Below are positions 6,945 through 31,800 of a DNA stretch of 32,000 nucleotides, in pieces. The first letter of the stretch is position 1, and each line of letters starts with the position of its first letter. Made by a program: the position numbers and the translations under genes. The stretch is from Microcystis aeruginosa NIES-2549 (GTDB taxonomy: Bacteria > Cyanobacteriota > Cyanobacteriia > Cyanobacteriales > Microcystaceae): contig NZ_CP011304.1 in assembly GCF_000981785.2 (NCBI RefSeq), positions 3,600,001 through 3,632,000 on the forward strand, in the 5' to 3' direction. The notes under the pieces were generated by a model. That model worked only from the letters and a program-made list of their open reading frames with translations. It searched no databases and was not told where the DNA came from.

Positions 6945-6983
6945 TGTAAAGCTGGTACAACCTTTTTTCGCTCGATCCATGTT

Positions 6984-8258: not shown

Positions 8259-8264
8259 ATCCAT

Positions 8265-8953
8265 GTTTCAATCCCTAATAGGGTTTAAGATTAATTGGAA
8301 CCCTTGCCCACTGACGCACAAAAGCAATTAAACAAGTTTCAATCCCTAATAGGGTTTAAGATTAATTGGAACTTTCGCTTGATTGGTACTCCAGACAAGG
8401 AAAATGTTTCAATCCCTAATAGGGTTTAAGATTAATTGGAACTTTGGTGTTGCAAGAGTGTCCAGATTTGGTACGCCGGTTTCAATCCCTAATAGGGTTT
8501 AAGATTAATTGGAACGTGGTATGTGAGCATTACCCATGATCAGGATTCGTTTCAATCCCTAATAGGGTTTAAGATTAATTGGAACAGAACAAAATATTGT
8601 CTATTCTATTACGAGAATAGGTTTCAATCCCTAATAGGGTTTAAGATTAATTGGAACAAGTGCGATTGTGGTGGTCGGTGTTGCTGCAGTGTGGAGTTTC
8701 AATCCCTAATAGGGTTTAAGATTAATTGGAACTAATGTCAATATCTCTGGAAGTTGGCAAAATAAGGTTTCAATCCCTAATAGGGTTTAAGATTAATTGG
8801 AACCTTTTTCGCCATTGTCACGTCTTACACAGTCGATGTTTCAATCCCTAATAGGGTTTAAGATTAATTGGAACGTTATCAGTAATTAACCCATTTAGGA
8901 GTACCAAAAAATGACTGTTTCAATCCCTAATAGGGTTTAAGATTAATTGGAAC
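8265..8953 (-). CRISPR. CRISPR array segment B: 10 repeats
   Basis: Same 37-nt repeat, starting at 8265, 8336, 8406, 8479, 8549, 8621, 8696, 8767, 8838 and 8917. Spacers are 33-42 nt. Confidence 0.97.
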
Positions 8954-8970
8954 ATCTATTGTCCCTTAGC

Positions 8971-10664: not shown

Positions 10665-10676
10665 CCAGCAATAGAA

Positions 10677-13099: not shown

Positions 13100-14104
13100 C
13101 TACTTTAAAATCAAAGGTGGATACTTATCCGTCTCGTCCATCAGATATTTCGCCATTAGTCGGGCCTGAATCTCGAAAGCTTCTTGATAAGTACACTGTT
13201 TACTCATTACCGGATGCTTAAACTTGGATTGTTTCTTCTGTTCGTACAAGCGCAGGAAAATCTGTAATCCCTCTCTCGTCAAGGAAACCGCACCGCTTAA
13301 GGGTTCGGTGGTGAAATGTTCGGGGGTAAGATAAGGATGATTGACCCCATTGAGAACCACGGCATCAACGACGATCGCTCTAAATTCTTCCATCAGATCC
13401 AGTGCCAGCGAGGGGCGACCGTAGCGTTGATAGTGAAGATAACCGAGATAGGGGTCAAAACCGACCAAATTGATCGCACTCTGCACGTCATGGCGCAATA
13501 ACGCATAACCCAGACTCAAAAGAGAATTGACCGGATCTCGCGGGGGGCGACGGTTACGCGAGGCAAAGGTAAAAGTATCGCCGAGAATTAAGGAATCAAA
13601 ACAACTGAAATAGGCTGCGCTTCCCGCTCCCTCTAACCCCCGGAGAGAATCGATCGCCGAGGTTGTTTCGATCGAGCCGATCGCTGCTTCCAGACAAGCG
13701 ATCGCCGTTTGTAAATCCAACTCTTTTCGATCGCGTTGACGACGGAGTAGAATGTTGCGGTAATTCTTCAGCTTGCCGCGGACGAATCCCCGCACTAAAT
13801 GAATGGCTTTCGGGGAATCGCCGGCGGCCTGCCATTGCGCTCGACGAACGAAAATATTTTTGGTCATCTCTGGTTCCAATCTACCGAGATAGCGTCCGGT
13901 GGATGTGACGAAACTCAGGGGAATATGACGTTCGAGCAGTTCGATCACCAAAGCTGGGGATAGCGAACCGCGACCAAATAAAACCACCCCATCAACATTT
14001 AATAAAGGAACATCGAGGATCGTTTCTTTGGATGCTTTGACCGTTAAACGCTCGTCATTTTTGCCGAGAAATGCGTCTTCTCTCGTCACATATACCGTTC
14101 CCAT
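13100..14104 (-). CDS. cas1: CRISPR-associated integrase Cas1
   Basis: 334 aa with Cas1-like motifs (..NSLLSLGYALL.., ..LDLMEEFR..). It sits between cas4 and cas2. Confidence 0.95.
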   Translation of the reverse strand: MGTVYVTREDAFLGKNDERLTVKASKETILDVPLLNVDGVVLFGRGSLSPALVIELLERHIPLSFVTSTGRYLGRLEPEMTKNIFVRRAQWQAAGDSPKAIHLVRGFVRGKLKNYRNILLRRQRDRKELDLQTAIACLEAAIGSIETTSAIDSLRGLEGAGSAAYFSCFDSLILGDTFTFASRNRRPPRDPVNSLLSLGYALLRHDVQSAINLVGFDPYLGYLHYQRYGRPSLALDLMEEFRAIVVDAVVLNGVNHPYLTPEHFTTEPLSGAVSLTREGLQIFLRLYEQKKQSKFKHPVMSKQCTYQEAFEIQARLMAKYLMDETDKYPPLILK

Positions 14105-14109
14105 ATTTT

Positions 14110-14703
14110 TTAGTCTTCCTCTTGATATCGTTGGACTTTTTCAGTTAATCGAGGCAAGCAGCGATCAAACAAACTGCATCCCTTGCAGCGGGGTGAATAG
14201 ACCGCCGGGGGCATTTTTCCCGTCTGGATCAGGGTTTCAACTGCTCGGATCGTAGCGATCGCCCGTTGCCGTAGAGCAAGATCGATCGCCACCGGTTGAC
14301 GCTGGTGAGAACTGGCATAGTAGATATAGCCAGTATCTAGCCTTTTTCCCGTCATTTCTTCCAAACAGATGGCTTGAGCGCACACCTGCAACTCGTCGTT
14401 ATCCCATTCGCCCTTACTGCCCCGTTTGTATTCCACGGGGATAAATTCGCCGTCGTGGGACTCGATCAGATCGGCTTTACCGATGAGACGGTAATTATCT
14501 GATTTAAGCCAGATCGCCCGAATTTGCCATATTTCCTCGCGGTTTCCCGCCCCAACGGTGTGAACTCGTTCGTGTAAATTTGTTCCCTCGATCGTGTAGC
14601 TATTATTAAGAAATTCCCCGGCGACGAACATCCGCCAACAACGGTGGGGACAGTAGGCGTAATGGTTGAGGGCGGCGATCGGTATGTAATCAGATTCATC
14701 CAT
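14110..14703 (-). CDS. cas4: CRISPR-associated exonuclease Cas4 (RecB-like, 4-Cys)
   Basis: 197 aa with an N-terminal YCPHRCW cysteine, C-terminal CKGCSLFDRC cysteines and a PD-(D/E)xK core. It lies immediately upstream of cas1. Confidence 0.9.
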   Translation of the reverse strand: MDESDYIPIAALNHYAYCPHRCWRMFVAGEFLNNSYTIEGTNLHERVHTVGAGNREEIWQIRAIWLKSDNYRLIGKADLIESHDGEFIPVEYKRGSKGEWDNDELQVCAQAICLEEMTGKRLDTGYIYYASSHQRQPVAIDLALRQRAIATIRAVETLIQTGKMPPAVYSPRCKGCSLFDRCLPRLTEKVQRYQEED

Positions 14704-14705
14704 AA

Positions 14706-15539
14706 CTATCTTTTATCTTTAGAAATTCTGCGAGTCATCCCCATTCCCATCGTGGTTTTCCGTCCCACTCCTGCATAGAGGGCAAAGTCCGCCAGTGCAT
14801 TAATCGCTTTAATCTTTGCGGGTTCCACCTCTCCCAAAAGACGATAGTGAATCTCGCCCACACAACCGATCGACTGGTTTTTATAGGCTTCATCGGTTAA
14901 TTTCGTTTGAATATCGAAGAAACTGGGAAAAATCGACTCTAGGGCAATAGAATCGAAGGAGATACCGCTATAGCGATTCCAACGACTGAGAAGGCTATTA
15001 AACACCAGTTCCCGCGTCGGTAAGGCACTATCGAATTTTCCCTGCCGGAAGGTGACGGGGGTAGCGAAAAGGAAATCAAATTCCCGATTCGTTTCCGAGG
15101 CGTTTTCATACAGGTATTGATAAGTACAAGAGTTCGCCCAGGGTTGAACCGATTGCGGGGTGGCGAGGACACTGGTGATAACCAGATCGGCGGAACCGAG
15201 ATGCCAGGGTTGTTTTGGATTGAGATTCAACCAGAGCGGGGTTAATTTACCGAATAATCGGTCATCGAGCAGAGAAATCCGCCACCAGCAGGGAGTTTCG
15301 GGCGCGATCTCCCGTTCGTGTCGCCAGCGTGGGAAATTTATTGTTTTTCTCCTGGACTGCATCTGTAGTGGCGATAAGGTAAAGGCTTTATCCGCATCCG
15401 ATGCGTGTAGAATGTTCCCTAATTCCTGATCGACACTACTGACAAGGGTAAGGAATAGCGCATGAAGGTGTCGTCCGGTGAGAAAATTCGGATAGATCGG
15501 CGATCGGGGTGTGAGATTAAGAACGAGACTATAGGGCAT
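14706..15539 (-). CDS. cas6: CRISPR repeat endoribonuclease Cas6
   Basis: 277 aa with the C-terminal glycine-rich loop GVGRKTTMGMGM typical of Cas6. The start ATG overlaps the upstream stop (TAATG). Confidence 0.85.
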   Translation of the reverse strand: MPYSLVLNLTPRSPIYPNFLTGRHLHALFLTLVSSVDQELGNILHASDADKAFTLSPLQMQSRRKTINFPRWRHEREIAPETPCWWRISLLDDRLFGKLTPLWLNLNPKQPWHLGSADLVITSVLATPQSVQPWANSCTYQYLYENASETNREFDFLFATPVTFRQGKFDSALPTRELVFNSLLSRWNRYSGISFDSIALESIFPSFFDIQTKLTDEAYKNQSIGCVGEIHYRLLGEVEPAKIKAINALADFALYAGVGRKTTMGMGMTRRISKDKR

Positions 15540-16126
15540 TAACTTAATCGGGCCTTGGCAAAAATTTGTCCGGGGGTTAGGGTTAAATCGGGGAGGAGAA
15601 TATCGCTCATCTCGTCATCGCCTTTTTTAATCGCCGGGGGTGCATCGGGATAGAAAATTGTGATCTGCTTGGCCTGGGGATCGACGATCCAGACGCGACT
15701 GACTCCCGCTTTTAGGTAGTCCACGGCTTTTTCGCTCAGGCTGCTGAAAGATTGTTCCGGAGAAATAATTTCGATGACTAATTCCGGGGGAACGGGACAA
15801 GCTTCATCGGTGAGGGTAATATCTCCTAACCTTTCTGGGGAAATGTAGAGGAGATCGGGAACGGGACACCAATCCCGATCGTTTTTGCTTAGGACGATCG
15901 CCCATTCGATTCCCACTTCTCCCCGTCCTTGATTCCAGCGATCGAGTAGGAGAAATAAAGCACCGGTTAAACGAGAATGAAAGAATTTCGGTGACATTTT
16001 CGGGATCGCTTCTCCATCGACTAATTCATAGGTAATATCGCCATCGGGAGGGGTTAGTGAGAGAAATTCCGGTAAAGTGAGGGATTTAGAAGAGATAAGA
16101 GTCATGGTATATAGTGTAGTGAACAT
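15539..16126 (-). CDS. Uma2-family (DUF820) PD-(D/E)xK putative endonuclease embedded in the cas operon
   Basis: 195 aa with YELVDGE.., ..PDLLYIS.., ..PELVIEIISPE.. and ..YLKAGVSRVWIVDP.. motifs, as in the cyanobacterial Uma2 family. Its stop overlaps the cas6 start by 1 nt. Confidence 0.8.
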   Translation of the reverse strand: MFTTLYTMTLISSKSLTLPEFLSLTPPDGDITYELVDGEAIPKMSPKFFHSRLTGALFLLLDRWNQGRGEVGIEWAIVLSKNDRDWCPVPDLLYISPERLGDITLTDEACPVPPELVIEIISPEQSFSSLSEKAVDYLKAGVSRVWIVDPQAKQITIFYPDAPPAIKKGDDEMSDILLPDLTLTPGQIFAKARLS

Positions 16127-16145: not shown

Positions 16146-18881
16146 TCAATCTTGTGTTAGAGCAGAAGTGTAGTTAATAACTACTGATCTATCCTTTGTG
16201 GGGTTATACTGAAGTCTTTCTTGATAGCCATTTGATCTCCATTTAATAAAAACTCCGGGCAAGTCTTTAAACCCTAATTCATGATCGTAGGAATAAGGCT
16301 CAAAAGAATCAGATATGGCTCCCTCCTGAACTGCACAGACTTTGATCACCAGTTCTTTACTGTATGCACATCCCCAATATTTTAAAGGTTCTAACTTATA
16401 TCGAGTTTCTTCCTTGTCGTAAATCCATTCGTACACAGACACATTAGCGTATTGATTTGTGTAATTTCCTTCATTATTCTTTTTCAAGATTAAACGATCA
16501 ATAGAGACTTGAATTTGAGGAGATTCTTTGACAATTTTTTCTAAACTATCACCCTGCTTACCGTCATCATATACCAAGGTAACGGATGGAGTCCAGCTAC
16601 GGGTGATTACTAATCCTTTTTCATGAGCAGATTGACAAGTGAGATCGGCATTATAAACATAGTCTTGCAACAGGGAAAAAAGCTCAACAACTCGATAATC
16701 ATCAATTGTCTGTTTTGTAGAAACACAATTCATGATCGCTTTCGGATCAAAGTTTTGATCGTGCAAACCCTTAAGAATTGTTTTATAATTCTCTAGTTCT
16801 GCCTCGCTTAAAGTATTAACAAATTCAGGAATATTATTGCCAATAACAATGATTTTTGCATCTTCAACATTACCTTTCCGATTGCAACGTCCCGCTCGTT
16901 GAATTAAACTTTCTGGGTTACACAGTTGAGTAATCAAACGGGTACTATTTAAATCACAACCAACTTCGATCGCACTGGTAGTAACCAGAATATAAGCTTG
17001 GTCATTTTCATCTCTCTCTTTTAATCTTTGATAAAGATTGGTTCGAGAATAATGGGAAGTTTTGGGAATATCTGACAAACGACCATGATAGAGAAACAAA
17101 AATTCTTTTTTTTCTGAAAATTTAATGTTTAATGTCTGTTTTATTTTTTCATAAATTGCTATCGCATCTTTAACAGTTTCTACAGAAACGATGATACGAT
17201 GGCTTGGGTTAGAGTTCCATTCTTCAAGTGCTATTGAGGTCAACTTTTGTTGTAAATTTGTTGGTTCTTCGTAAAATTCAAACTGTTTTAAATTAGAATA
17301 GTCTTGCTTCAAAATTTGCTGATAAAAATTATTTAGCTTCTCTAGATTGTCCTGAACATCAATGTAATCGATCATGTTATCCGCAAGATAATCGAATCTT
17401 TCCAGATGATTTTGTGATAAAGTTGCCGTCATTAAAACAAGCGAGCATCCTGCTTCATACAAAGCTTTAACCAAACTGCAAAAGTTAGTAAACGAAATAT
17501 CATCATAGGTATGAGCTTCATCAAAACAAATCAGTGTATTACCATGATAAATTCGATAGGGAAAGATGAATGATTTTTGCTTATCACCATAGCCAAAGTA
17601 TCGATATATAAATTTATCAATCGTTGTTAAAATAATATCTCCTTTGTATAAATGTCTTCGAGAATTATTGCTAGATTTAACTTCTCCATCTAGATAAACA
17701 TATCGATTCATTTCGGTTCCTGTATCTATCACCAAAGACACTTCACGTCCTTTGTGTAGGAGTGAAAATTGTTTTAAATATTTATCGCATCTCTGTTTTT
17801 GATCTTCTAACAAACTTCGTGCAGGTAGGGGTATAATCAGGCGAGGTCTATCTTCTTTTGTAGATAGCATAGCTAAAAAGGGAATAATAATCGCTTCAAA
17901 TTTTCCCGCTCCTGTAGGAGCTTTAAGTATAAAAGCTGGATGCTGGTTTTTAACCATCGTTTGAAACACTTCCTCCTGCATTGGATTAGGTTGAAAATTC
18001 GCTAATTCTTCATACCACCAAAAAATTGCATTTTCTGATTTTTCTGATGGGGAATAAGTGTTTGAATTATCAGGTTTGATAATGGCAGTAATTGCTCTAT
18101 CTTCACTGATTGTATGTTCGTTTTTTTTCCACCACTCTTTAACAAGAGTATTCAATTTACTTCCTAATTCTTTATCTTTTCGGTTTTCGTGTAATTGTTG
18201 GAGTTGATTTTTATCCTCGTCTGACAAGTTATATGTCCACGAACGAAAATTTAAAGTGATAGTTGGTTCTTTAAAAGGATAGGGATCGAGATAAAAAACA
18301 CGGTGGTTGCTATCTTCGGATGTACCTTTAGTTATTGTAAAATCCATAAATGTGCGAGATTTTGCCTGTTCGTCGTCTCCAATGACACGACAAGCTAATT
18401 CCGCTTCAATTTGATCGCACATTTCCAAAATATAAAGTTCTTTGGCGTATTGTAAGGGGTCTTTAGAGAAAATCTTCTGATATTCAGTATCTTTTTTTAA
18501 TTGATAGGTATCCTTGATAATTTCCTTAGTTGAATAGTCATGATGTCCTCTCGCTAGAGCCTGCACCCAAAGATTTTGTGGGTTATCTACTTTAAATCGA
18601 TGCCCTTTAAATGAATAAGTATATTTTGTAAACTCTCCCTGTTTATTAGTTTCAACGCGAATCTTGAAAGTTTGTGGTTTAGCTTTGTCGTGTAAATTGA
18701 TTCCTTCAATAACTCGTTCTAGAGAAAAGTTGCCATCTTGCCATTTTCTGGCTAATTGTCTAACATTACCTACATGATTACCCAGGGGTTGAAAAAGAAT
18801 TTTATCAGGAGCAATTGTAGGTTCGCCTGGAAAAAACACGCGGCCGAATTTGAAAAAAGGTTGAGGGTTAGATTTAGACAT
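16146..18881 (-). CDS. cas3: Cas3 helicase-nuclease with an N-terminal HD domain
   Basis: SF2 helicase motifs APTGAGKF, FDEAH, MTATLS, VTTSAIEVGCD and QRAGRCNR. N-terminal HD pattern, numbered from MSKSNPQ: H36, H64-D65-x2-K68 (NLHDKAKPQTF), H94, H113-H114 (GHHD), D156. ATG 18881 overlaps the cas5 stop by 8 nt and is preferred over the track's 18911. Confidence 0.9.
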   Translation of the reverse strand: MSKSNPQPFFKFGRVFFPGEPTIAPDKILFQPLGNHVGNVRQLARKWQDGNFSLERVIEGINLHDKAKPQTFKIRVETNKQGEFTKYTYSFKGHRFKVDNPQNLWVQALARGHHDYSTKEIIKDTYQLKKDTEYQKIFSKDPLQYAKELYILEMCDQIEAELACRVIGDDEQAKSRTFMDFTITKGTSEDSNHRVFYLDPYPFKEPTITLNFRSWTYNLSDEDKNQLQQLHENRKDKELGSKLNTLVKEWWKKNEHTISEDRAITAIIKPDNSNTYSPSEKSENAIFWWYEELANFQPNPMQEEVFQTMVKNQHPAFILKAPTGAGKFEAIIIPFLAMLSTKEDRPRLIIPLPARSLLEDQKQRCDKYLKQFSLLHKGREVSLVIDTGTEMNRYVYLDGEVKSSNNSRRHLYKGDIILTTIDKFIYRYFGYGDKQKSFIFPYRIYHGNTLICFDEAHTYDDISFTNFCSLVKALYEAGCSLVLMTATLSQNHLERFDYLADNMIDYIDVQDNLEKLNNFYQQILKQDYSNLKQFEFYEEPTNLQQKLTSIALEEWNSNPSHRIIVSVETVKDAIAIYEKIKQTLNIKFSEKKEFLFLYHGRLSDIPKTSHYSRTNLYQRLKERDENDQAYILVTTSAIEVGCDLNSTRLITQLCNPESLIQRAGRCNRKGNVEDAKIIVIGNNIPEFVNTLSEAELENYKTILKGLHDQNFDPKAIMNCVSTKQTIDDYRVVELFSLLQDYVYNADLTCQSAHEKGLVITRSWTPSVTLVYDDGKQGDSLEKIVKESPQIQVSIDRLILKKNNEGNYTNQYANVSVYEWIYDKEETRYKLEPLKYWGCAYSKELVIKVCAVQEGAISDSFEPYSYDHELGFKDLPGVFIKWRSNGYQERLQYNPTKDRSVVINYTSALTQD

Positions 18882-19698
18882 TAATTGATTCTCTTTGTAA
18901 AAGTTCCACAAGTGCTACAGGAATCTGAAGATTTCCATCCGTATAGAAATCTAAAGTGGGTAAAGGATGGGCTTTTTCGGGATAGTAAGCGGCAACAAAG
19001 GGGATAAAACCATTAATAGGAGATCGCTCTGTATCGAACAATCCCTTATCTTCATCTTGAGTCTGATCTGCTGACCATTCATGACGATAGAGATTATAAA
19101 TATCACAACGATTGATACAAGGATTTCGCTGTATTAAAGCTTCCATTGGAACAACAGTTGACGGGTGAGCGGAAAGAATCTTTCTTTGGAGTCGTATAGA
19201 TTCAGATACCTCGTCAATCACCGCAAATCCTTCCTTACCAATTTTACATCCGACTCCTTGTAGGTTAGAAAATGCCTCTAGACTGGACTTAGATTCGCTT
19301 ACAACATAGCCGATTAACTCCTCAGCGATAAAATATTCCCAAGTGTGTAACTGAAAGTTTTCTCGATCGCCATCAATGTATAGTCTAGAAAAAACATCAT
19401 GGTTAAACGATCGAGTTCCTTTGCGATGAGTACGATGGACTCCAGACCATTTATCTAGGACTGGATAGGCTCCTAACGCTATATACTGACGAGGTAGGGT
19501 GAAATAAGGCGGATTTTCCTTGTTAATGCTGGTTTCAGGGATATCTAATCCCTCGCTTAACATTACTATCCGTCGGAGAAACCCAGAAAAAGTAGTCGGT
19601 GGGACGAAGGGATAAGTGGCGATATTGAGAATCGATCCAGGCAGTATGCGAAATGTCATCGCCGCCGTTGGGATAATCTTAAAGGTCAGGCAATACAT
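18874..19698 (-). CDS. cas5: Cas5 (Csc1-like) Cascade subunit
   Basis: 274 aa. The N-terminal ..TYPFVPPTTFSGFLRRI.. matches the Cas5 RAMP signature. It lies between cas7 and cas3, with a 3-nt gap to the cas7 stop. Confidence 0.75.
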   Translation of the reverse strand: MYCLTFKIIPTAAMTFRILPGSILNIATYPFVPPTTFSGFLRRIVMLSEGLDIPETSINKENPPYFTLPRQYIALGAYPVLDKWSGVHRTHRKGTRSFNHDVFSRLYIDGDRENFQLHTWEYFIAEELIGYVVSESKSSLEAFSNLQGVGCKIGKEGFAVIDEVSESIRLQRKILSAHPSTVVPMEALIQRNPCINRCDIYNLYRHEWSADQTQDEDKGLFDTERSPINGFIPFVAAYYPEKAHPLPTLDFYTDGNLQIPVALVELLQRESINV

Positions 19699-19701
19699 GA
19701 T

Positions 19702-20595
19702 TTATGCTTGTAAAACTGTATCGACGAATATTGCGGAGTATTCTTGCAATTTGGCTAACGCTTCATTGCCTATCCAGCGATCGAAGTGCGCTTCTTGAAT
19801 ATGATTAGTGAAATTAGTTTCAGGATACAGTGCCAAATAAAGGAAATCATTGATCGCCTTTTGCGGGTCGGTTTCCGAGGGAGAAACGATTGGACGCTTC
19901 CCTCTAGGAGATAAATATCTATCCAAAACCAGAAGCGGGGTACGATCGTCCGTTTCCGCGATAGCAATTCCTTTCGGATTTCCTGAACCTATGCGAGGTA
20001 ATGAATCTAAGAAAGCATAAGCCACAGCTGAAAAGTCTTGATCGGTGATACTCAGAGCGTGGTTATAAACGGGATAGAGAATGCCGGGTTGATTGTATTC
20101 TCGTCTAAAAGGTGTGGGAGTTTCATCATTTCGATTGACCAATAAAGCGGGGTGCATTGCTCGTTGTTTTTCGACCGGGTAAATCTCTTGTATGGCAACA
20201 CCTCCACCATGAGTTACCCGACCGATTAAAGTCCGTTTTCCTGGATCGAGTGCGCCAAATGTAGCACAAATCGGACAAGTGGGTTCAGCACAGGTTTTGG
20301 GAATTCCGCAGTTTTGTTTATCTCCTAGCAGTTCTCCACTTTTCACAGGAGACCATAGTAAACAACGTCGTTCAACTCCTCGCCGTTTGGTCGGAGAAAT
20401 ATAACATTTTTCAATTTCTTTACCATCTTTTGTACTCAGTTTAACGATTTCAACTAAGTTAACATTAACCTGTACTTCATGTCCTAGGTAAAGCTCTTGA
20501 GAGCCTTCGAGAATGGCATAAATATCAAAATGCAATCTAGGTTTATTAGCATCAGTCTTAGGTAGTCCAGTCGTCACTTTAGATTCGGTAGCCAT
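19702..20595 (-). CDS. cas7: Cas7 (Csc2-like) Cascade backbone subunit
   Basis: 297 aa in the position directly after the large subunit, with an AAGGAG SD inside the upstream gene's end. It has a Cys cluster CAEPTCPICATFG. The family assignment rests on context and a remembered resemblance to Csc2, and it needs an HMM check. Confidence 0.7.
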   Translation of the reverse strand: MATESKVTTGLPKTDANKPRLHFDIYAILEGSQELYLGHEVQVNVNLVEIVKLSTKDGKEIEKCYISPTKRRGVERRCLLWSPVKSGELLGDKQNCGIPKTCAEPTCPICATFGALDPGKRTLIGRVTHGGGVAIQEIYPVEKQRAMHPALLVNRNDETPTPFRREYNQPGILYPVYNHALSITDQDFSAVAYAFLDSLPRIGSGNPKGIAIAETDDRTPLLVLDRYLSPRGKRPIVSPSETDPQKAINDFLYLALYPETNFTNHIQEAHFDRWIGNEALAKLQEYSAIFVDTVLQA

Positions 20596-20597
20596 CG

Positions 20598-21116
20598 TTA
20601 TTTATCTCCTTTAGATGAAAGTTTACGAACCAATTCAGGAAACCGCGTATAAAGAGAAAGTTTGAGATTATAAGTTAAATTCTTCCACTCTTTTTCTTGT
20701 GCATAATTACCTACTTGATCAGGATTAGCAAAATAGGCATAAGATTTGGTGATGTCGTCAGCATAAAAAACAAGCCATTTTTTACCCGAATTATCAACTT
20801 CTTCTCTATTAGTGATTTCTAGCTTATTTTCTAGCATTTTTTTTGCTTGTTCGTAGATAAAGTAATTATCAGGATTGTGATATAGCCTTGCTTGAACACT
20901 AATTTTCTTTTCATCTCCTAATGTCGCATAATAACTAAAAGCAACAGGATCATCTACTTTTTCTATTAATTTACTTACCTCACGTTCTGCATCTTCTGGC
21001 TTCATTAATTTTTTAGCAGTACTTTCTAAAGATTGGGCAAAAGCGTAAGTTAATCCTGTCAATGCGGCCACGTCTTCATATAATTTTGCCCGTTTCCAAA
21101 GTGAATCGATAGTCAT
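20598..21116 (-). CDS. Candidate internally translated small subunit (Cas11-like), in frame within the large-subunit gene
   Basis: In-frame ATG at 21116..21114 preceded by AAGGAG (21127..21122) with a 5-nt spacer. It would give the 172-aa helical C-terminal product MTIDSLWKRAKLYEDV..SSKGDK. Confidence 0.45.
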   Translation of the reverse strand: MTIDSLWKRAKLYEDVAALTGLTYAFAQSLESTAKKLMKPEDAEREVSKLIEKVDDPVAFSYYATLGDEKKISVQARLYHNPDNYFIYEQAKKMLENKLEITNREEVDNSGKKWLVFYADDITKSYAYFANPDQVGNYAQEKEWKNLTYNLKLSLYTRFPELVRKLSSKGDK

Positions 21117-23129
21117 AGTTTCTCCTTGAATATCTTGGATGATGGTTTGCAAATATTGTTCCCTAACTCGTTCCAATAATAAACGGTCAGAAATACTGGA
21201 AGCTTTAAGTAATGTATAGTCTGCTAAGTAGGGTGAATCTTGTTGTACATAACGAATCGCATCTCCTAGTTTAAGGTTAATATCTTTCCCACTGACGATA
21301 ATTGATTGATCATAACCTTCTATCAAACCTTTAATAAATATTAATTGACGGCTTACTAAAACTTTTTCTGTTCTTTGAAGCTGAAGAACAAATTTAAAAT
21401 CTTTAATAACCTCTAAGGGAAAAATCGAGGCAACTTTTGCTAAAGCATATTGAAACTGTCCTAGTTTTTTTGAAGCGGTATCTCCTGTGATTGTTTTTTC
21501 AGAAGTTAGGGCAATGTAACAACCCGAAGATAAATGTACTTCTTTATTGGTTAGCATTCGCAAGTAGTCTTTGATTTTAACTTTCGTTACACCTCTATCA
21601 TCTTGAGATTCAAGTCGTAAGATAATACTATCATCCGTTACTTTTAAGGGGGAGGCAAACGATAATACAGAACAAGAAGAGCAAATGAAAGGTCTATCTT
21701 CACTAGAGGATGATTGACGACGTTGAGACGGTCGCTCGAACATAAATCTAGCTACTCTCCATCGCACAGTTTTAGCATCTAAAGTTACTCCGCAAGAGTA
21801 ACAAAAATCTTTACCATCGTCTCCCGCTGTCCTTGCTGCTAAAATTTTTGGGTTAATCGTTAAAAGCGGTTCTGGAATGGTTTCGAGTTTTGGATTTTCT
21901 AACAAACGATACATCTCTAATATACATTGAGTGAAAATATCGCCACGAGTCGAGTTAATTTGTTCTGTGGCAGTTTTGTTAAAAGATTTAGCGATCGCCT
22001 GAATTGGCTTCAATAGATCTGTTTGTTTTTGTTTTTCTATAAACTCAAACGGATTTCCGTCTGATTCTTCTAGAAATCTCTGCTTCTCCTCGATCGAATC
22101 TTCCTGAAAAATAATTTGTGACTCTATTTTATCCTTTTGCTTCTGTAATTTGCTAACTTGAGCTTTTGACAAACCAGTTTTTCCTAACTGCTCATCAAGG
22201 TTTCTTCTTTCATGATAAATAGCTCGTTGCTCATCTAATAATTTAGACAAAACTTTCTGAAAATAATCTCTATATTTATTAAACTCTTTAGCTTGCATTT
22301 CCTGCTTGCTTTTTAGCTTCTTTTCAGTGGACTCTAAATCTTTCGAGTTAAGTTCTTCGGATTTAATTTGCTCAATAAGTTGAACGATCTCAGTCTCACG
22401 CTTCTCTTGGCGATCCTTTACTTGCTCGAAAATAGCTAAATAAAAAGCCGCTAACACCTTGGCTTGATCTCTGGTAATTATCGGAATTTCTAGGGTGCTA
22501 AAACCTCGTCCCGCTAAGGGAACACTTTTTAGCATTGTGATAAAAGTTTGCATTAATCCTGATAGCTGATATTGAAAATCACCATAGATAGAAAAAATAA
22601 CTTTCGTGATAAATTCTATCCAAAGCTCCTCTATATTATGTGATTGTTGAGTTTGTGGAATAAAAATCTGCACATGGTAATTACTTTCATGCAGGGAAAC
22701 AATCTGATATTTTTTTTGCAAAAACTCTAAAAACCGATCAATCGTGCTTTCATGAGTTAATTTTGCTTGTAGCTCTCCCGGTGACGGTGATTTGTACACA
22801 AGCTGTATTTCACCTATCTCTCGTTCTCGATAAAAAACTTGATTCCCTTGAAACGTGGGTTTAATGAACTCGCTTTCTTTTTGAGGTTGAGAAAGTCGTA
22901 ACTGTCTAACCAATTTAGGACAATCAAAAGTTTTGGCGATCGCTATCGCTCTTGGATCGTCAGCTAAAGCGGAAATCAATGTCGAGTCGGTTTGAGCGAT
23001 CGCATTTGCGGTCAAAGCACTCAATAAGATAGTAATTTCAAGTTCGCTAATTTCTTCCGAAGTCGTAACCGCTTTTGTATCTTGCTCTGGAGAAACATTC
23101 TCGAAAAGTGAAAGTTGTTTAATCGACAT
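20598..23129 (-). CDS. cas10d: Type I large subunit, Cas10d/Csc3-like or Cas8-like, lacking an HD domain
   Basis: 843 aa, first large gene of the effector operon. It has a zinc-finger-like CYSCG..(about 40 aa)..CSSCS. There are only 7 His and no His-Asp dipeptide, and no GGDD motif. It carries a K/E/Q-rich coiled-coil segment. The call rests on position and size. Confidence 0.6.
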   Translation of the reverse strand: MSIKQLSLFENVSPEQDTKAVTTSEEISELEITILLSALTANAIAQTDSTLISALADDPRAIAIAKTFDCPKLVRQLRLSQPQKESEFIKPTFQGNQVFYREREIGEIQLVYKSPSPGELQAKLTHESTIDRFLEFLQKKYQIVSLHESNYHVQIFIPQTQQSHNIEELWIEFITKVIFSIYGDFQYQLSGLMQTFITMLKSVPLAGRGFSTLEIPIITRDQAKVLAAFYLAIFEQVKDRQEKRETEIVQLIEQIKSEELNSKDLESTEKKLKSKQEMQAKEFNKYRDYFQKVLSKLLDEQRAIYHERRNLDEQLGKTGLSKAQVSKLQKQKDKIESQIIFQEDSIEEKQRFLEESDGNPFEFIEKQKQTDLLKPIQAIAKSFNKTATEQINSTRGDIFTQCILEMYRLLENPKLETIPEPLLTINPKILAARTAGDDGKDFCYSCGVTLDAKTVRWRVARFMFERPSQRRQSSSSEDRPFICSSCSVLSFASPLKVTDDSIILRLESQDDRGVTKVKIKDYLRMLTNKEVHLSSGCYIALTSEKTITGDTASKKLGQFQYALAKVASIFPLEVIKDFKFVLQLQRTEKVLVSRQLIFIKGLIEGYDQSIIVSGKDINLKLGDAIRYVQQDSPYLADYTLLKASSISDRLLLERVREQYLQTIIQDIQGETMTIDSLWKRAKLYEDVAALTGLTYAFAQSLESTAKKLMKPEDAEREVSKLIEKVDDPVAFSYYATLGDEKKISVQARLYHNPDNYFIYEQAKKMLENKLEITNREEVDNSGKKWLVFYADDITKSYAYFANPDQVGNYAQEKEWKNLTYNLKLSLYTRFPELVRKLSSKGDK

Positions 23130-23216
23130 AGTGCTGTCCTTCCTTGATTTCTTGTCTTGAGGGAGTAGGCTGAAAAGTGCCTACTTCCGCTCTCTAGAGG
23201 CGTTATTGCCAGGATT

Positions 23217-23360
23217 CTAGGTTAAATCAGCGAAAATTCTGACTTCGCCTTCAGAATCCAAGACTGGAGACTGCCTCAGTTCTTTGATTTGGCACTGAAG
23301 AAGCTCGATTTGGTCTTGAATAATTTCGATTTGCTGGTGAATATCGTCAACATTAGGCAT
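23217..23360 (-). CDS. Small 47-aa coiled-coil protein, first ORF of the cas transcription unit
   Basis: ATG 23360 is preceded by GGGAGG with a 6-nt spacer. The product is MPNVDDIHQQIEIIQDQIELLQCQIKELRQSPVLDSEGEVRIFADLT, with heptad-like I/L spacing. The longer track ORF (start 23426) lacks an SD. Confidence 0.5.
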   Translation of the reverse strand: MPNVDDIHQQIEIIQDQIELLQCQIKELRQSPVLDSEGEVRIFADLT

Positions 23361-23473
23361 TACTGACCTCCCTTGTATTTTTATTGACGTGGGTATCCAT
23401 CTGGGGTCAGCTTTGCTATAATGCAAGTACAGAAATTTTTGTATAGATAGCCGACCCCAAAACGGCTTCTTTT

Positions 23474-23502
23474 AATATAGATCACTGTTCACGTCGTTAC
23501 AA
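23474..23502 (-). promoter_or_regulatory. Candidate cas operon promoter (-35 TTGTAA 23502..23497, 17-nt spacer, -10 TATATT 23479..23474)
   Basis: This is the best sigma70-like hexamer pair on the minus strand upstream of the small ORF and large-subunit gene. It is a motif-based prediction only. Confidence 0.35.
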
Positions 23503-23543
23503 GTGCGAGGCTAAAAAAGCCAATTATTCTCTTAAGCATATCA

Positions 23544-23552
23544 TGGTAAGAT
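23544..23552 (+). promoter_or_regulatory. Candidate extended -10 (TGGTAAGAT) for the mini-CRISPR RNA
   Basis: A TGN plus -10-like hexamer ending about 4 nt before psiR1. A second extended -10, TGCTATAAT, lies at 23414-23422. No good -35 was seen for either. Confidence 0.25.
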
Positions 23553-23555
23553 AAT

Positions 23556-23652
23556 CGATCACTGAACCCCTGATACTAAGAGGGATTGAAACGTCACGAG
23601 TGGTGAGGCTACTGTTTAGCCTTTTCATCGAATCCCTATTAGGGATTGAAGC
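23556..23652 (+). ncRNA. Degenerate mini-CRISPR (psiR1 - short psi-spacer - psiR2); candidate CreR/CreA-like regulatory crRNA-like RNA
   Basis: 23581-23592 AGGGATTGAAAC equals the last 12 nt of the crRNA-sense repeat. 23631-23652 AATCCCTATTAGGGATTGAAGC matches 20/22 nt of the repeat's 3' half. Both copies retain a hairpin. The orientation is opposite to the main array. Confidence 0.55.
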
Positions 23653-23653
23653 C

Positions 23654-23712
23654 AGACAGGGCAATATGCGATCTTTGTCTATGAGGTTGTCCATGCTACT
23701 CTGTCTTTTTTT
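23654..23712 (+). terminator. Candidate intrinsic terminator downstream of the mini-CRISPR
   Basis: AGACAGGG (23654-23661) pairs with CTCTGTCT (23699-23706), including one G-U, and is followed by T6 (23707-23712). The loop is long (37 nt), so confidence is moderate. Confidence 0.35.
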
Positions 23713-23893
23713 GTTCACTCCAAATATCTGCCGTTTTAGATCGCCCGAACTCCCCACAACGATGTGGCGGTGACACCATATCGTCAGTGGTATATCCTCC
23801 TCATTTCCTCTTACCATAGCTTTTTGAGATCATTTATCATTACAATATAGGCATCGTAGCACAAATATTCTAAAACTACAAGTACATTTTCAG

Positions 23894-24751
23894 GTGAACC
23901 GCAAAAAAGAAACAATTACACTGTCAATCCCTCCCGGCACGAAGGAGAAGCTAGAGGCGATCGCCCGACACTTTAACATCTTTTGGGGGAAAAGTCCTAG
24001 TCCGTCAGGTCTAATCGCCGCCATCGCCGAAGGAGAACTGGAGATCGGTGAATCTTTTACCCTCTCGACGAAGCAGGTCGAAGCGATTAAGGAAGCGATC
24101 AACCGTCTGGTGCGATCGGGTCACATCAAACAGGCCCAGACTCTTTCTAATTTTCTTTTAGAAAAGGGAAATCTCTCCCCTCAAGAGCGTCGGGAGATTT
24201 CCGAACAGGTGAGTCAGTACGATCGCGATTGGCGGCTCGCGGTGGAGAGCTATATCCATGACAGGCAAGCTTTTCGGGTAATGTACAAAGATTCTCAGGG
24301 ACAGACCCTAGAATTTACTGTTCGCTCTGCCGAGATCATGTTTCGGGAAAAAGAATTCTATCTGGATATCTGGTGTGAGGAAACTGAGGGACTGTCAGAA
24401 GAAGATAAAAGAGACTTTCCCGAACTTGTTCACAATCGCTGTCTTAAATTCTCTCGTATTCAAAGCCTGATCCCGATCGAAGAACCATGGCGAGACAGTC
24501 TCGATTTTATAAAAGTACAATTACAATTAGAAAAAGACCTCGTGAAGGCTTATGAAAGGAAGGCAAGGGATATCGACGACCGAGAGGTAAACGGAAAAAG
24601 GATTATAACCCGTAAAGTCTCTAGTCATTTTTGGTTAATTCGGGAGATTTTACCCTATGGAGATCGCTGTATTGTACTTACACCAGAGCCATTACGCAAC
24701 CGGATCAAACAAATGTTATTAAATCTTCATCAACAATACGAATCGGGGTAA
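23894..24751 (+). CDS. RHH-WYL domain transcriptional regulator, divergent from the cas operon (Sll7009-like CRISPR regulator class)
   Basis: 285 aa with a GTG start. The N-terminal ETITLSIPPGTKEKLEAIARHF looks like ribbon-helix-helix. The central ..FRVMYKD..EFTVRSAEIMFREKEFYLDIWC..RCLKFSRIQS.. fits the WYL pattern. The C-terminal ..ILPYGDRCIVLTPEPLRNRI.. is WCX-like. Confidence 0.7.
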   Translation: MNRKKETITLSIPPGTKEKLEAIARHFNIFWGKSPSPSGLIAAIAEGELEIGESFTLSTKQVEAIKEAINRLVRSGHIKQAQTLSNFLLEKGNLSPQERREISEQVSQYDRDWRLAVESYIHDRQAFRVMYKDSQGQTLEFTVRSAEIMFREKEFYLDIWCEETEGLSEEDKRDFPELVHNRCLKFSRIQSLIPIEEPWRDSLDFIKVQLQLEKDLVKAYERKARDIDDREVNGKRIITRKVSSHFWLIREILPYGDRCIVLTPEPLRNRIKQMLLNLHQQYESG

Positions 24752-26429: not shown

Positions 26430-26625
26430 GACAGGCAAAAGGCAATAGGCAATAGGCAAAAGGAGCAATAGATAATCAGTTTTTAATAACCAGATTTAGT
26501 ATAAACAGTGAACAGTAATCAGTAATCAGGGATAAAGATGAAGATAAATAAATAAATAACTTAAAACTTACATCTGATAACTTAAAACTTACATCTGATA
26601 ACTGATAACTGATAACTGATAACTG
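26430..26625. repeat. Mosaic of 7-nt-periodic tandem repeats plus a 21-nt direct repeat
   Basis: Units are AGGCAAA/AGGCAAT (about 26431-26465), AACAGTG/AACAGTA/ATCAGTA (about 26504-26530), AACTTAAAACTTACATCTGAT x2 (26558-26599) and CTGATAA x4 (about 26595-26625). The last array abuts the permease stop codon. Confidence 0.9.
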
Positions 26626-27492
26626 TTAAACCGTGCCTTTAAATAAACCTTGGGGACGGAATAATAACAGCAAGATCATAATTAATAAAGCCACGGCTAA
26701 TTTATAATCAGAACCAATTAAGGGGACACTAATTTCTTGGGCAACACCAATAATTAAAGCACCAGCAATCGCTCCGTAGGGATTACCAATACCACCTAAA
26801 ATCACGGACGCAAACATGGGTAAGATTAAAAACCAGCCCATATTGGGACGTACTCCCCCGGTAATTAATCCGAACATCCCTCCGGCTAAAGCAGTTAAAA
26901 CTCCCGTGATTATCCATGTCCAGAAAACAACCCATTCGACGTTAATTCCGGTTACTCTAGCTAAATCGGTGCTGTCAGCTACGGCACGCATCGCCTTACC
27001 GATTTTGGTTTTTTGTAATAACAAATGGAGGGCAATAATAACTATAATTGCCAAACCAATGACTAACAAACGATCAAAAGCTACTTTAATCCCCAAAATT
27101 TCTGTAGCGGGCATCACAGGCAGATCGTAGCGTTGATTACTGCCGCCCCAAATCATTAAAATACCATTGCGAAGAAATAAAGCCAAACCGATCGAAATAA
27201 TAATTAAAGTGGTAGAATCAGCCCGTCGATCGCGCATAGGTTTCCACAATAATCTCTCGGCAACGAGCATAGCAATAGCTGTCACTGCTGCCCCCACCAG
27301 CATCGCTAACCAGAGATTAATCCCTTGAGCATTTACCACCCAAGTTATGTAAGCACCCAAAGTCATAAAATCGCCGTGGGCAAAATTAGACAGACGCAAA
27401 ATGCCACAGGTAAGGGTTAACCCGACGGCAGCCAGAGCAATAATACTGCCGACGGCTAAACCATTGAATAAAAGTTGCGGTGTATCCATCAA
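26626..27492 (-). CDS. Branched-chain/neutral amino acid ABC transporter permease (LivH/NatD-type)
   Basis: 288 aa and polytopic. ..LFNGLAVGSIIALAAVGLTLTCGILRLSNFAHGDFMTLGAY.. is characteristic of the LivH family. Confidence 0.85.
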   Translation of the reverse strand: MMDTPQLLFNGLAVGSIIALAAVGLTLTCGILRLSNFAHGDFMTLGAYITWVVNAQGINLWLAMLVGAAVTAIAMLVAERLLWKPMRDRRADSTTLIIISIGLALFLRNGILMIWGGSNQRYDLPVMPATEILGIKVAFDRLLVIGLAIIVIIALHLLLQKTKIGKAMRAVADSTDLARVTGINVEWVVFWTWIITGVLTALAGGMFGLITGGVRPNMGWFLILPMFASVILGGIGNPYGAIAGALIIGVAQEISVPLIGSDYKLAVALLIMILLLLFRPQGLFKGTV

Positions 27493-29394: not shown

Positions 29395-29516
29395 GAATTA
29401 TGAATTATGAATTATGAATTATGAATTGGGGAGTGGGGAGTATTTTCAGTAAACAGTAAACAGTAAACAGTGAACTGATAACTGATAACTGATAACTGAT
29501 AACTGATAACTGATTC
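29395..29516. repeat. Cluster of heptamer tandem repeats
   Basis: GAATTAT x4 (29395-29422), GGGGAGT x2 (29428-29441), CAGTAAA x3 (29447-29467) and CTGATAA x5 (29475-29509). It lies between the convergent purK and the SGNH hydrolase gene. Confidence 0.95.
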
Positions 29517-29528
29517 AGTAAACCCTAA

Positions 29529-30479: not shown

Positions 30480-31800
30480 GTTCGCTAATTTTTGACATCC
30501 TCACCGCCGTAAACGGACGGTGATTCCCAAACCTCACGATTTGAGTTTCTGCTTCTTTCCCGAAGGATTTTTCGCACCTGCCTTAACAGATTTACTCTGT
30601 TCTGGTCATCAGGTCGCTCTACAGACTGACACCGCAAGCCCTGCGGCCAAAATATTTTTACTGGCGTTAATATCTCGGTCATGGTGAGTCCCACAGTCTG
30701 GACAGTCCCATTCTCGAATATTTAACGGCATTTTTTCAGCAATATACCCGCAATTACTACACCTTTTAGAGCTAGGAAACCATCTATCTATTTCGATGTA
30801 ATTTCTCCCATACCAACGGCATTTATAGGCTAATTGTCGGGTAATTTCTCCCCAACTAACGTCAGATATTGCCTGAGATAATTTAGGGTTTTTGACCATA
30901 TTCTTGACGGCTAAATTCTCAACCACAATCGTTTGATTTTCACGAACTAATTGAGTGGTTAGCTTATGTAAATGGTCTTTTCTGTTATCAGTAATTTGAG
31001 CGTGAATCTTGGCTACTTTGATTCTTGCCTTTTCCCGATTTTTTGACCCTTTCTGTTTTCGAGAAAGATTTTTCTATGCTCTTCGCAACCTCTGATAATG
31101 TTTCTTAAAATGCTTAGAATTAGATACTTTATCGCCGTCGCTGGTAATCACAATGCTACTAATTCCTAAGTCAATTCCAATGGCTTTATCTGTTACTGGT
31201 AATGGCTTAATTGTTGGGTCATCAAATCTTATTGAGATATGCCAACGTCCAGAAGGATGTAATCTGACTGTTACTGTGCTTGGTTCACATCCGTCTGGTA
31301 TTTGTCTTGACCATCGAATAGGTAAAGGTTCTGTGCATTTAGCTAAATAGATTTGTCTGTCTTTAAATTTAAAAGCAGATTTGGTAAATTCGGCACTTCC
31401 TCCCTGATGTTTTTTCTTAAAGTTAGGATACTTAGTACGACCAGAAAAGAAATTGTTAAAAGCTGTTTGTAGGTGTCTTAACCCTTGTTGTAAAGGTACA
31501 CAGCTAACTTCGTTTAAAAAGTCTAATTCTTCTTGTTTTTTCCAATCGGTCAACATTGAAGAAGTTTGAGCATAGCCTACTCTTTCTTGCTTTTCGTACC
31601 AAGCTTGTGTTCGTTCGTGGAGAGCTTTATTGTAAACCAATCTTACACATCCCAAAGTGCGCCGCAATAGCGACTCTTGTTCGGGTGTTGGGTAAAATCG
31701 GTAAGAATAGGCTTTTTCCATGTCTTATATTTTAGCATATATTTCGTAAATGTGCTAATATTTAACAGCAAAGCCGCCGTAAAACGGCGGGGTTTCAGAC
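30480..31800 (-). mobile_element. IS200/IS605-family (IS1341-type, tnpB-only) element
   Basis: The tnpB homolog is flanked by related subterminal hairpins CCGCCG-TAAAA-CGGCGG (31774-31790) and CACCGCCG-TAAA-CGGACGGTG (30502-30522). The boundaries are approximate. Confidence 0.65.
30534..31721 (-). pseudogene. tnpB: tnpB (RNA-guided endonuclease, OrfB_IS605) interrupted by in-frame stops
   Basis: A single 396-codon frame has TAG at 31076..31074 (codon 216) and tandem TGA TGA at 30611..30606. The RuvC and zinc-finger motifs are otherwise intact (IGIDLGI, VVENL, CSNCG..CPDCG, HDRDINAS). Confidence 0.85.

Follow-up and report, generated by a model that had tools for sequence, protein, structure and literature searches.

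A mini-CRISPR with a conserved, co-varying target at the predicted cas promoter: probable autorepression of a cyanobacterial type I-B system

The subject of this analysis is a mini-CRISPR found in a 32,000-nucleotide stretch of the Microcystis aeruginosa NIES-2549 genome (contig NZ_CP011304.1, positions 3,600,001 to 3,632,000 of the forward strand; hereinafter the window, with all positions counted from its first nucleotide). It lies on the plus strand between cas8b and the gene for a WYL/WCX-domain regulator and consists of two degenerate repeats, located outside the CRISPR array of this locus, which enclose a guide, or psi-spacer. The guide partially matches a GTC-flanked site at the predicted promoter of the cas operon, and in about 25 cyanobacterial lineages the guides and their targets co-evolve, as comparison of their sequences shows. 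The element represents an already-known kind of CRISPR self-regulation (CreR/CreA type), unusually well supported in this case. It probably forms a CreR-type circuit, in which the guide directs the Cascade complex of the same locus to the cas-operon promoter, with repression and without cleavage. Particular to this locus are a Cas8b effector associated with a type I-D-type repeat, Cas6, and GTH flank, a small protein as the first regulated gene, and targets that often have no base opposite guide position 6 or 12.

Guide, target and flank

The coordinates of the mini-CRISPR and its surroundings are listed in Table 1. The 8-nucleotide (nt) handle of repeat 1 is the normal 5' handle of the array repeat. 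The stem of this repeat is evidently maintained, because its changes across lineages are compensatory (CCCT/AGGG in ten cases, TCCT/AGGA in four, CTCT/AGAG in two, and CCCA/TGGG and ACCT/AGGT). Guide positions 13 to 31 (23605-23623) contain an internal hairpin, GAGGCTA-CTGTT-TAGCCTT. Repeat 2 shows a partial match to CRISPR-DR5 (23631-23650, E=0.045), which is weak and is the only match to a known RNA family in Rfam at the mini-CRISPR. TATAAT-like hexamers are found at the matching place before repeat 1 in other loci, and the mini-CRISPR is likely driven by its own promoter at this position.

On the plus strand, positions 23493-23520 read GTC followed by GTTACAAGTGCGAGGCTAAAAAAGC, and the guide GTCACGAGTGGTGAGGCTA faces GTC followed by GTTACAAGTGC-GAGGCTA at 23493-23513. 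Direct reading agrees with an earlier account of this DNA made without database searches (the sequence-only reading), according to which guide positions 1 to 10 match 23496-23505 at 8 of 10 positions, with mismatches at positions 3 and 6, GAGGCTA at guide positions 13 to 19 (23605-23611) equals 23507-23513 after a 1-nt gap, and GTC precedes the site. Over the entire match (guide 23593-23611 against 23496-23513), there is no match at positions 3, 6, and 11, and position 12 coincides with the 1-nt gap, so that 15 of the first 19 guide positions are matched; the similarity stops after position 19.

Seed identity of at least 8/10 is seen at 13 other sites in the 64 kb of both strands. Just one of these, at 15179 on the minus strand inside cas6, has a GT flank, and the match there has no extension. 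When the match is scored over three 5-nt blocks with 0 to 2 nt allowed at positions 6 and 12 (maximum score, 15), the target site scores 13, with 4/5, 4/5, and 5/5 in the three blocks, and is the joint best non-self match in the window, tied with a TTA-flanked site at 29566 on the minus strand. Among 300 shuffled guides, 19% reach 13 anywhere in the window and 0.33% reach 13 with a GT flank (64 kb, both strands); the earlier estimate of about 0.01 for a chance match had the right order of magnitude. By window statistics alone, the match is moderately unlikely.

The comparison included 63 loci encoding Cas8b relatives, with one genome per species, and six further Microcystis contigs (individual sequences are denoted by L numbers below). 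The mini-CRISPR is present in more than 30 loci, which come from many cyanobacterial genera; in most cases it lies 380 to 630 nt upstream of cas8b, and it is oriented away from this gene. Its layout is conserved: a hairpin, GGGATTGAAAC, the guide, a second hairpin, and the terminator GCCAGAG...CTCTGGCTTTTT, which is found at the same place in most loci. The guides are strongly divergent between genera. In 34 loci, guide bases 1 to 24 were searched against both strands of the interval from cas8b to repeat 1, with the alignment anchored at base 1, gaps allowed, and no protospacer-adjacent motif (PAM) required. The top match is on the guide's strand in 33 of the 34 loci, mostly 78 to 135 nt upstream of the guide and about 400 to 550 nt upstream in two loci. 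The flank is GTC in 22 loci, GTT in 8, and GTA in 1 (31/34 altogether), and never GTG, with about two GTN flanks expected by chance; hence the motif GTH. Its assignment as the PAM is based on the literature and on the conservation of these flanks.

The guides and targets co-vary, a pattern that the sequence-only reading had proposed to look for in homologous loci. In 20 non-redundant lineages, a guide and its own target share on average 7.55 of 10 informative seed positions, versus 3.09 of 10 for cross-locus pairs, only 0.26% of which reach 8. Within Microcystis, guide and target position 10 is G:G in the window and in L067 to L069 and A:A in L003 and L064 to L066; L001 and L002 deviate. In the gapped alignment of 25 lineages (Table 2), identity at positions 6 and 12 falls to the chance level or the base is deleted in the target, and pairing stops after about position 17. 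The former agrees with the earlier proposal that every sixth base is flipped out of the pairing. Selection of the best match raises identity overall, but it cannot produce the dips at positions 6 and 12 or the constant strand, distance, and flank. Such a pattern is expected if the guide is held by a Cas7 backbone and if selection acts on pairing in no more than three segments of 5 nt. Targets in L007 and L056 were placed by hand, since the automatic top match had no GTN flank, and in L026 the nearer of two GTC-flanked sites was used.

Such a match could also be due to plain chance, or be left over from a local duplication or from gene conversion involving the mini-CRISPR and its neighboring sequence, with no Cascade binding. 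In Microcystis, the 8-mer GATCACTG is found both before the target (23480-23487, plus strand) and before repeat 1 (23557-23564, plus strand) and may be a trace of the origin of the guide and target, or chance; the GAGGCTA block and the AGCC that follows it are likewise present in both copies, and the window-only statistics are modest. However, the GATCACTG similarity is not seen in other genera, and the GTH flank is kept at exactly -3 to -1, whereas the guide itself is flanked by AAC. Seeds that are otherwise divergent co-vary, and the identity dips fall precisely at positions 6 and 12. Judging from these sequence patterns, a remnant or chance match is highly improbable and can be considered excluded for practical purposes.

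Table 1. Features of the window discussed in the text
Feature	Position	Strand	Remarks
Likely own promoter of the mini-CRISPR	23544-23555	+	-10 element TGGTAAGAT (23544-23552) / GATAAT just upstream of repeat 1
Degenerate repeat 1	23556-23592	+	22/37 identity to array repeat; hairpin CCC(C)T...AGGG; 8-nt handle ATTGAAAC at 23585-23592
Psi-spacer (guide)	23593-23615	+	begins GTCACGAGTGGTGAGGCTACTGT; positions 1-19 face the target
Degenerate repeat 2	23616-23652	+	24/37 identity to array repeat; hairpin CCCTATTAGGG retained at 23634-23644; handle altered to ATTGAAGC
Mini-CRISPR terminator	23654-23712	+	stem AGACAGGG/CTCTGTCT, then T7
PAM-like GTC	23493-23495	+	directly 5' of target, non-target strand
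Partial protospacer	23496-23513	+	pairs with guide positions 1-5 (4/5), 7-11 (4/5), and 13-19 (7/7); guide position 12 unpartnered
Predicted promoter P2, toward small open reading frame and cas8b	23474-23502	-	-35 TTGTAA (23502-23497), 17-nt spacer, -10 TATATT (23479-23474)
Stem-loop at predicted 5' end of P2 transcript	23451-23469	-	AGCCG-N9-CGGCT; hairpin at the same place in other loci
47-residue acidic open reading frame, first gene downstream of P2	23217-23360	-	GGGAGG ribosome-binding site; conserved
GC-rich stem-loop between small open reading frame and cas8b	23165-23184	-	no U-run; strong hairpin here in nearly all loci, position conserved, sequence not
Second cas-direction promoter/operator P1, WYL-proximal	23853-23882	-	CTTGTA (23882-23877)-18-TGCTACGAT; TACGAT at 23858-23853
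WYL/WCX-domain regulator gene	23894-24751	+	divergent from cas8b; profile matches
cas8b, first gene of effector operon cas8b-cas7b-cas5b-cas3	20598-23129	-	843 residues; PADLOC Cas8b, E=0, 1221 bits
cas7b	19702-20595	-	297 residues; PADLOC Cas7b, 2e-139
cas5b	18874-19698	-	274 residues; PADLOC Cas5b, 3e-131
cas3	16146-18911	-	Cas3 helicase domains found
Uma2-family putative restriction endonuclease gene	15539-16126	-	Pfam; inserted between cas3 and cas6
cas6	14706-15539	-	PADLOC Cas6d, 8.9e-143
cas4	14110-14703	-	
cas1	13100-14104	-	
CRISPR array	1305-12581	-	116 identical 37-nt repeats, GTTCCAATTAATCTTAAACCCTATTAGGGATTGAAAC on minus strand; interrupted by two insertions

Table 2. Guide/target agreement by position, as numbers of lineages
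Guide position	Match	Mismatch	Deleted in target
1	24	0	1
2	25	0	0
3	24	1	0
4	22	2	1
5	20	3	2
6	5	13	7
7	24	0	1
8	24	1	0
9	22	3	0
10	18	3	4
11	22	2	1
12	8	16	1
13	20	3	2
14	22	3	0
15	24	0	1
16	22	0	1
17	18	0	2

Promoters around the target and the proposed circuit

In a consensus scan of 23100-23950, P2 (TTGTAA-17-TATATT) is the sole promoter-like site on the minus strand. A TAnnnT hexamer in the cas direction is found 9 to 17 nt beyond the PAM in 31 of 33 loci; it is 13 to 16 nt away in 26 loci and TGn-extended in 22. These data support the earlier suggestion that the site overlaps the -35 region of a cas-direction promoter. The -10 element sits at a fixed distance from the PAM. Relative to P2, the PAM is at about -26 to -28 and the protospacer at about -29 to -60. 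Downstream of P2 are the small open reading frame (ORF), a GC-rich hairpin, and cas8b. There is no intrinsic terminator between the small ORF and cas8b, which begins 45 nt past the hairpin with no promoter-like hexamer in between. The predicted P2 thus overlaps the target site, its -10 element is conserved, and transcripts would meet no terminator before cas8b, with the small ORF and the strong hairpin intervening. This hairpin may represent an attenuator or a transcript-stability element. The 5' leader of P2 (23400-23470, minus strand) has no match in Rfam; past its hairpin, it contains a box resembling CTATGTAG-N2-TCGCA-N-CTCA that is conserved in many genera.

The second promoter, P1, has the general form GTACTTGCA-N17-TGCCATAcT, abuts the WYL gene, and is conserved in loci with or without the mini-CRISPR; it is probably a WYL-controlled cas promoter. 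A second copy of TTGTAA(A/T)TG(C)A follows the P1 motif (23840-23893, minus strand), and repeated TGTACTTGCA and TTGTAA(A/T)TG motifs are found at 23840-23890. Transcripts from P1 must cross the target site to reach cas8b. As the mini-CRISPR has its own -10-like element before repeat 1, the target lies between two back-to-back promoters.

Alternatively, the site might mainly control the promoter of the mini-CRISPR itself or only act as a roadblock to P1 transcripts, with P2 not being a real promoter. Between the end of the protospacer and the -35 of the predicted mini-CRISPR promoter there are about 20 to 30 nt, in L013 a guide-strand promoter, TTGTCT-16-TATAGT, encloses both the PAM and the seed, and P1, which is conserved in all loci, has to be read through the site. 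However, the extended -10 on the cas strand, at a fixed 13 to 16 nt from the PAM in most loci, is then hard to explain. This makes control of the mini-CRISPR promoter or a pure roadblock improbable as the main role of the site, and in either case the cas operon would still be repressed in a Cascade-dependent manner.

The CreR-type circuit can be outlined as follows, with transcription, processing, Cascade binding, repression, and the absence of cleavage extrapolated from experimentally studied systems. The mini-CRISPR (23556-23652) would be transcribed rightwards from its own -10 element up to the terminator. Cas6 would cut the transcript, yielding an RNA that resembles a CRISPR RNA (crRNA) and has the normal 5' handle ATTGAAAC. 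This RNA would load into the type I-B Cascade of the locus (Cas8b/Cas7b/Cas5b) and recognize the GTC-flanked site at 23493-23513. Pairing through three 5-nt segments, about 17 nt in all, would suffice for stable binding, but neither a complete R-loop nor recruitment of Cas3 would be expected from so short a match; the end of pairing after about position 17 fits the argument of the sequence-only reading that a seed-only match would avoid cleavage. Bound Cascade would cover about -29 to -60 of P2, which is predicted to feed the small ORF and then cas8b-cas7b-cas5b-cas3, and would also obstruct transcripts coming from P1. The expected outcome is negative feedback: abundant functional Cascade would hold the operon down, and its loss or inhibition would release the operon. 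Such a circuit predicts how bloom-forming Microcystis restrains its 113-spacer CRISPR system, alongside the WYL regulator.

Several observations weigh against this circuit. Seed position 3 is mismatched in the window and in all other Microcystis loci, and matched in the other 24 lineages. In type I-E systems, a seed mismatch at position 3 weakens binding, and repression in Microcystis may be weak for this reason. Many targets have no nucleotide opposite guide position 6 or 12. The mini-CRISPR is dispensable for the cas operon, as about 19 related loci lack it, and its tight association with the small ORF also fits a module that guards a toxin (see below). The conserved hairpin before cas8b could attenuate read-through from P2. 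Finally, the spacers of the array provide no independent flanks: a search with the 113 array spacers, joined by runs of N, gave no credible protospacer match in phage or plasmid collections, and the three leader-proximal spacers have no exact match in IMG/VR.

The small acidic protein and the optional cassette

The 47-residue protein encoded by the small ORF belongs to a family of strongly acidic proteins of 42 to 70 residues, encoded directly upstream of cas8b. In these proteins, a variable amphipathic helix precedes the motif PVxD(S/x)EGE(V/I)xS(Y/F)AD(W/L). Across genera, conservation of the ORF is at the level of the protein, with EGE(V/I)xS(Y/F)AD as the C-terminal motif. The AlphaFold model of the 47-residue protein (predicted local distance difference test score, 89.9) consists of a helix at residues 4 to 29 and a β-hairpin and shows no fold match. 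Sequence searches found no match in Pfam, NCBIfam, PADLOC, PHROGs, or PDB sequences, and a word-indexed protein search retrieved only Microcystis relatives. The ORF is a concrete candidate for a new factor under Cascade control.

About 35 loci have both the mini-CRISPR and the small ORF, and about 19 have neither. In most of the latter, the WYL gene and cas8b are 130 to 380 nt apart, with the WYL-associated promoter retained. The cassette formed by the two elements is optional for this I-B family. The small ORF without a mini-CRISPR is found in L021 only, and in L010, L013, L026, and L062 the mini-CRISPR and the target are combined with another first gene. The cargo gene of L010 and L026 encodes another small protein, with the architecture of guide, PAM, and -10 element unchanged; the constant downstream element is therefore the cas operon. 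An alternative gene for a protein of 61 to 75 residues precedes cas8b in L005, L006, L048, L054, L010, and L026, a set that includes loci with and without a mini-CRISPR. This protein has the motif MSDGxWHSxxELVxKxSHRFSAT...KFDKRR and is possibly a winged-helix protein. A relaxed search for cryptic mini-CRISPRs in loci apparently lacking one revealed a single odd repeat-like unit, CCTG-N7-CAGAGGGATTAAAC, located about 170 to 700 nt upstream of cas8b in L041 and L046. It has no recognizable second repeat or target and may be a degraded or different regulatory repeat.

The association of the two elements admits another function, a toxin-guard module similar to CreTA or CrePA. In such a module, the guide would silence the 47-residue ORF, and once Cascade is lost or blocked by an anti-CRISPR, the protein would be made and the cell harmed. 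The cas genes would become addictive, or abortive infection would follow, and either outcome can coexist with cas autorepression. Besides the co-occurrence counts, with the ORF alone in a single locus, the pair acts as an insertable cassette between the WYL promoter and cas8b: L022 has it, L053 and L059 lack it, and the flanks are homologous. Downstream of the targeted promoter, the ORF also comes first, and the conserved strong hairpin follows it. For type I-D loci, Shmakov et al. (PMC10120712) report mini-arrays directed at promoters of cargo genes that lie upstream of cas10d, toxin-antitoxin genes among them, and a protein toxin under Cascade repression has been described (bioRxiv 10.1101/2024.01.05.574328). 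However, the protein is predicted to be a soluble, strongly acidic combination of a helix and a β-hairpin that resembles no toxin family or fold. The ORF also differs from a CreT-type small RNA: an RNA toxin of the CreTA type would be a small RNA that combines a mini-ORF of rare codons with a strong ribosome-binding site, and the ORF is conserved as a protein. In addition, L021 carries the ORF without a mini-CRISPR, L010, L013, L026, and L062 keep the mini-CRISPR and the target with another first gene, and the alternative gene for 61 to 75 residues is present even where there is no mini-CRISPR at all. On balance, a toxin guard appears rather unlikely, and autorepression of the cas operon remains the preferred reading.

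Both functions could be combined in a more speculative scheme, which we consider doubtful. The mini-CRISPR, the Cascade-repressed promoter, and the acidic protein of 42 to 70 residues would form a mobile three-part switch spread across cyanobacteria. The protein would be an unrecognized effector that is freed only when Cascade fails (a toxin, a trigger of abortive infection, or an anti-anti-CRISPR factor), and the loss of the nucleotide opposite position 6 or 12 would be a device for binding without a complete R-loop on the cell's own chromosome.

Effector type, related systems and neighboring sequences

The effector encoded in the window is of type I-B (Cas8b/Cas7b/Cas5b with Cas3). The Cas8b profile of PADLOC matches over the full length (residues 28 to 843 against model positions 6 to 759 of 759), and the protein is 96% identical to a Microcystis protein. 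The sequence-only reading had compared the flank with the PAM reported for type I-D. The GTH flank, the Cas6 (Cas6d-like profile), and the repeat are the only I-D-like features of the locus, and the effector is not I-D. A type I-D assignment of the effector was rejected: the Cas8b, Cas7b, and Cas5b profiles match, and the 843-, 297-, and 274-residue proteins have no Pfam match to the Csc1, Csc2, or Cas10 families. As a control, the genuine Csc2 and Csc1 encoded on the related Microcystis contig L067 do give Pfam matches. No I-D effector genes were found elsewhere in the window. The array repeat is identical to the Microcystis DR1 repeat, which the literature ties to I-D loci (PMC4428289, which also gives a weak GTT motif, and PMC11855584). 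A Cas8b effector module can apparently run on I-D-type repeats, Cas6, and PAM. On L067 (positions 1-2500), a metagenomic contig, the I-D genes csc2 and csc1 are located directly upstream of the WYL gene and of the operon for the I-B effector; the I-D and I-B effector modules there seem to share a single set of Cas6, adaptation genes, and array. A WYL gene is found upstream of cas8b in 60 loci.

Elements of this kind are known from several systems. CreR RNAs have been shown experimentally to autorepress I-B, I-E, and V-A cas genes, and such elements were seen by manual inspection in I-D (termed creA-like), I-C, I-F, and I-U loci (Liu et al., bioRxiv 10.1101/2023.03.10.532045). As with CreR, the window has a degenerate two-repeat mini-CRISPR beside the effector genes, with partial, seed-proximal complementarity of the guide to a PAM-flanked site at the predicted cas8 promoter; autorepression without cleavage, characteristic of CreR, is predicted here from the sequence. 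In contrast to CreR, the effector is a cyanobacterial complex of the Cas8b type, associated with a repeat and a Cas6 of the I-D type and with a GTH flank, cas8b is separated from the targeted promoter by a conserved gene for a small protein, and many targets in the family have no nucleotide opposite guide position 6 or 12.

The CreTA modules of Haloarcula hispanica and its relatives (PMC8501985, PMC9458426) are similar in that a mini-CRISPR guide directs the I-B Cascade, as predicted for the window, to a site between divergent promoters, one of them toward cas8, and in being present in some loci and absent in relatives. The Haloarcula CreA target is located between the divergent Pcas8 and PcreT (bioRxiv 10.1101/2023.03.10.532045). 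However, CreT is a toxic small RNA and acts by sequestering a tRNA, whereas the first gene in the window encodes a conserved acidic protein with no toxin match, and the divergent partner promoter is that of the mini-CRISPR itself rather than of a toxin.

Mini-arrays with a regulatory role have been reported in 18% of I-B and 15% of I-D loci, together with cargo genes and with partial targets that are PAM-flanked and mismatched at sixth positions (PMC10120712). The I-D cargo mini-arrays described there (Shmakov et al.) are likewise transcribed away from the effector genes and have a PAM-flanked partial target, with sixth-position mismatches, in the promoter that serves variable small genes located upstream of the gene for the large subunit. 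They differ in that those loci encode cas10d and the window encodes cas8b/cas7b/cas5b. In the type I-B system of Parageobacillus thermoglucosidasius, guide shortening switches cleavage to repression (PMC10551041). Short guide/target pairing leads to repression there as proposed here, although the crRNAs there are shortened by engineering and are not a natural element. A literature search found no paper describing this particular mini-CRISPR family, in a comparison made outside the supplementary lists of Shmakov et al.

The some 25 independently diverged guide/target pairs offer a sequence-only readout of the PAM (GTH) and of the seed rules (5+1 periodicity over about 17 nt) for an uncharacterized cyanobacterial I-B variant, and they are ready test cases for cyanobacterial repression tools.

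Array comparisons with phages gave matches only to repeat-like sequences in Microcystis phages. Phage Ma-LMM01 (35763-35961; L070, 401-600) and phage MaMV-CH01 (L071, 401-525) carry two or three near-perfect host DR1 repeats behind a TGCTATAAT promoter. In the Ma-LMM01 repeat handle, the final A replaces C, and the MaMV-CH01 spacer is an inverted copy of the region upstream of its own array. The spacers of these phage mini-arrays bear no resemblance to the cas promoter target of the host. In the host array, the two insertions are located at 6945-8264 and 8954-10676; a DDE transposase gene (7004-8152) is found in one and a 500-residue ORF (9106-10608) in the other. Two array spacers are present twice in near-identical form, which indicates a duplicated array segment. 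Elsewhere in the window, runs of the heptamers ACTGATA/AACAGTA are found at 26528-26634 and 29436-29528, beside housekeeping genes. Two adjacent ORFs at 30609-31721 on the minus strand encode TnpB/Cas12f-like domains (HTH_OrfB_IS605 and OrfB_IS605 in one and a TNB domain in the other) and look like a disrupted tnpB of the IS605 family.

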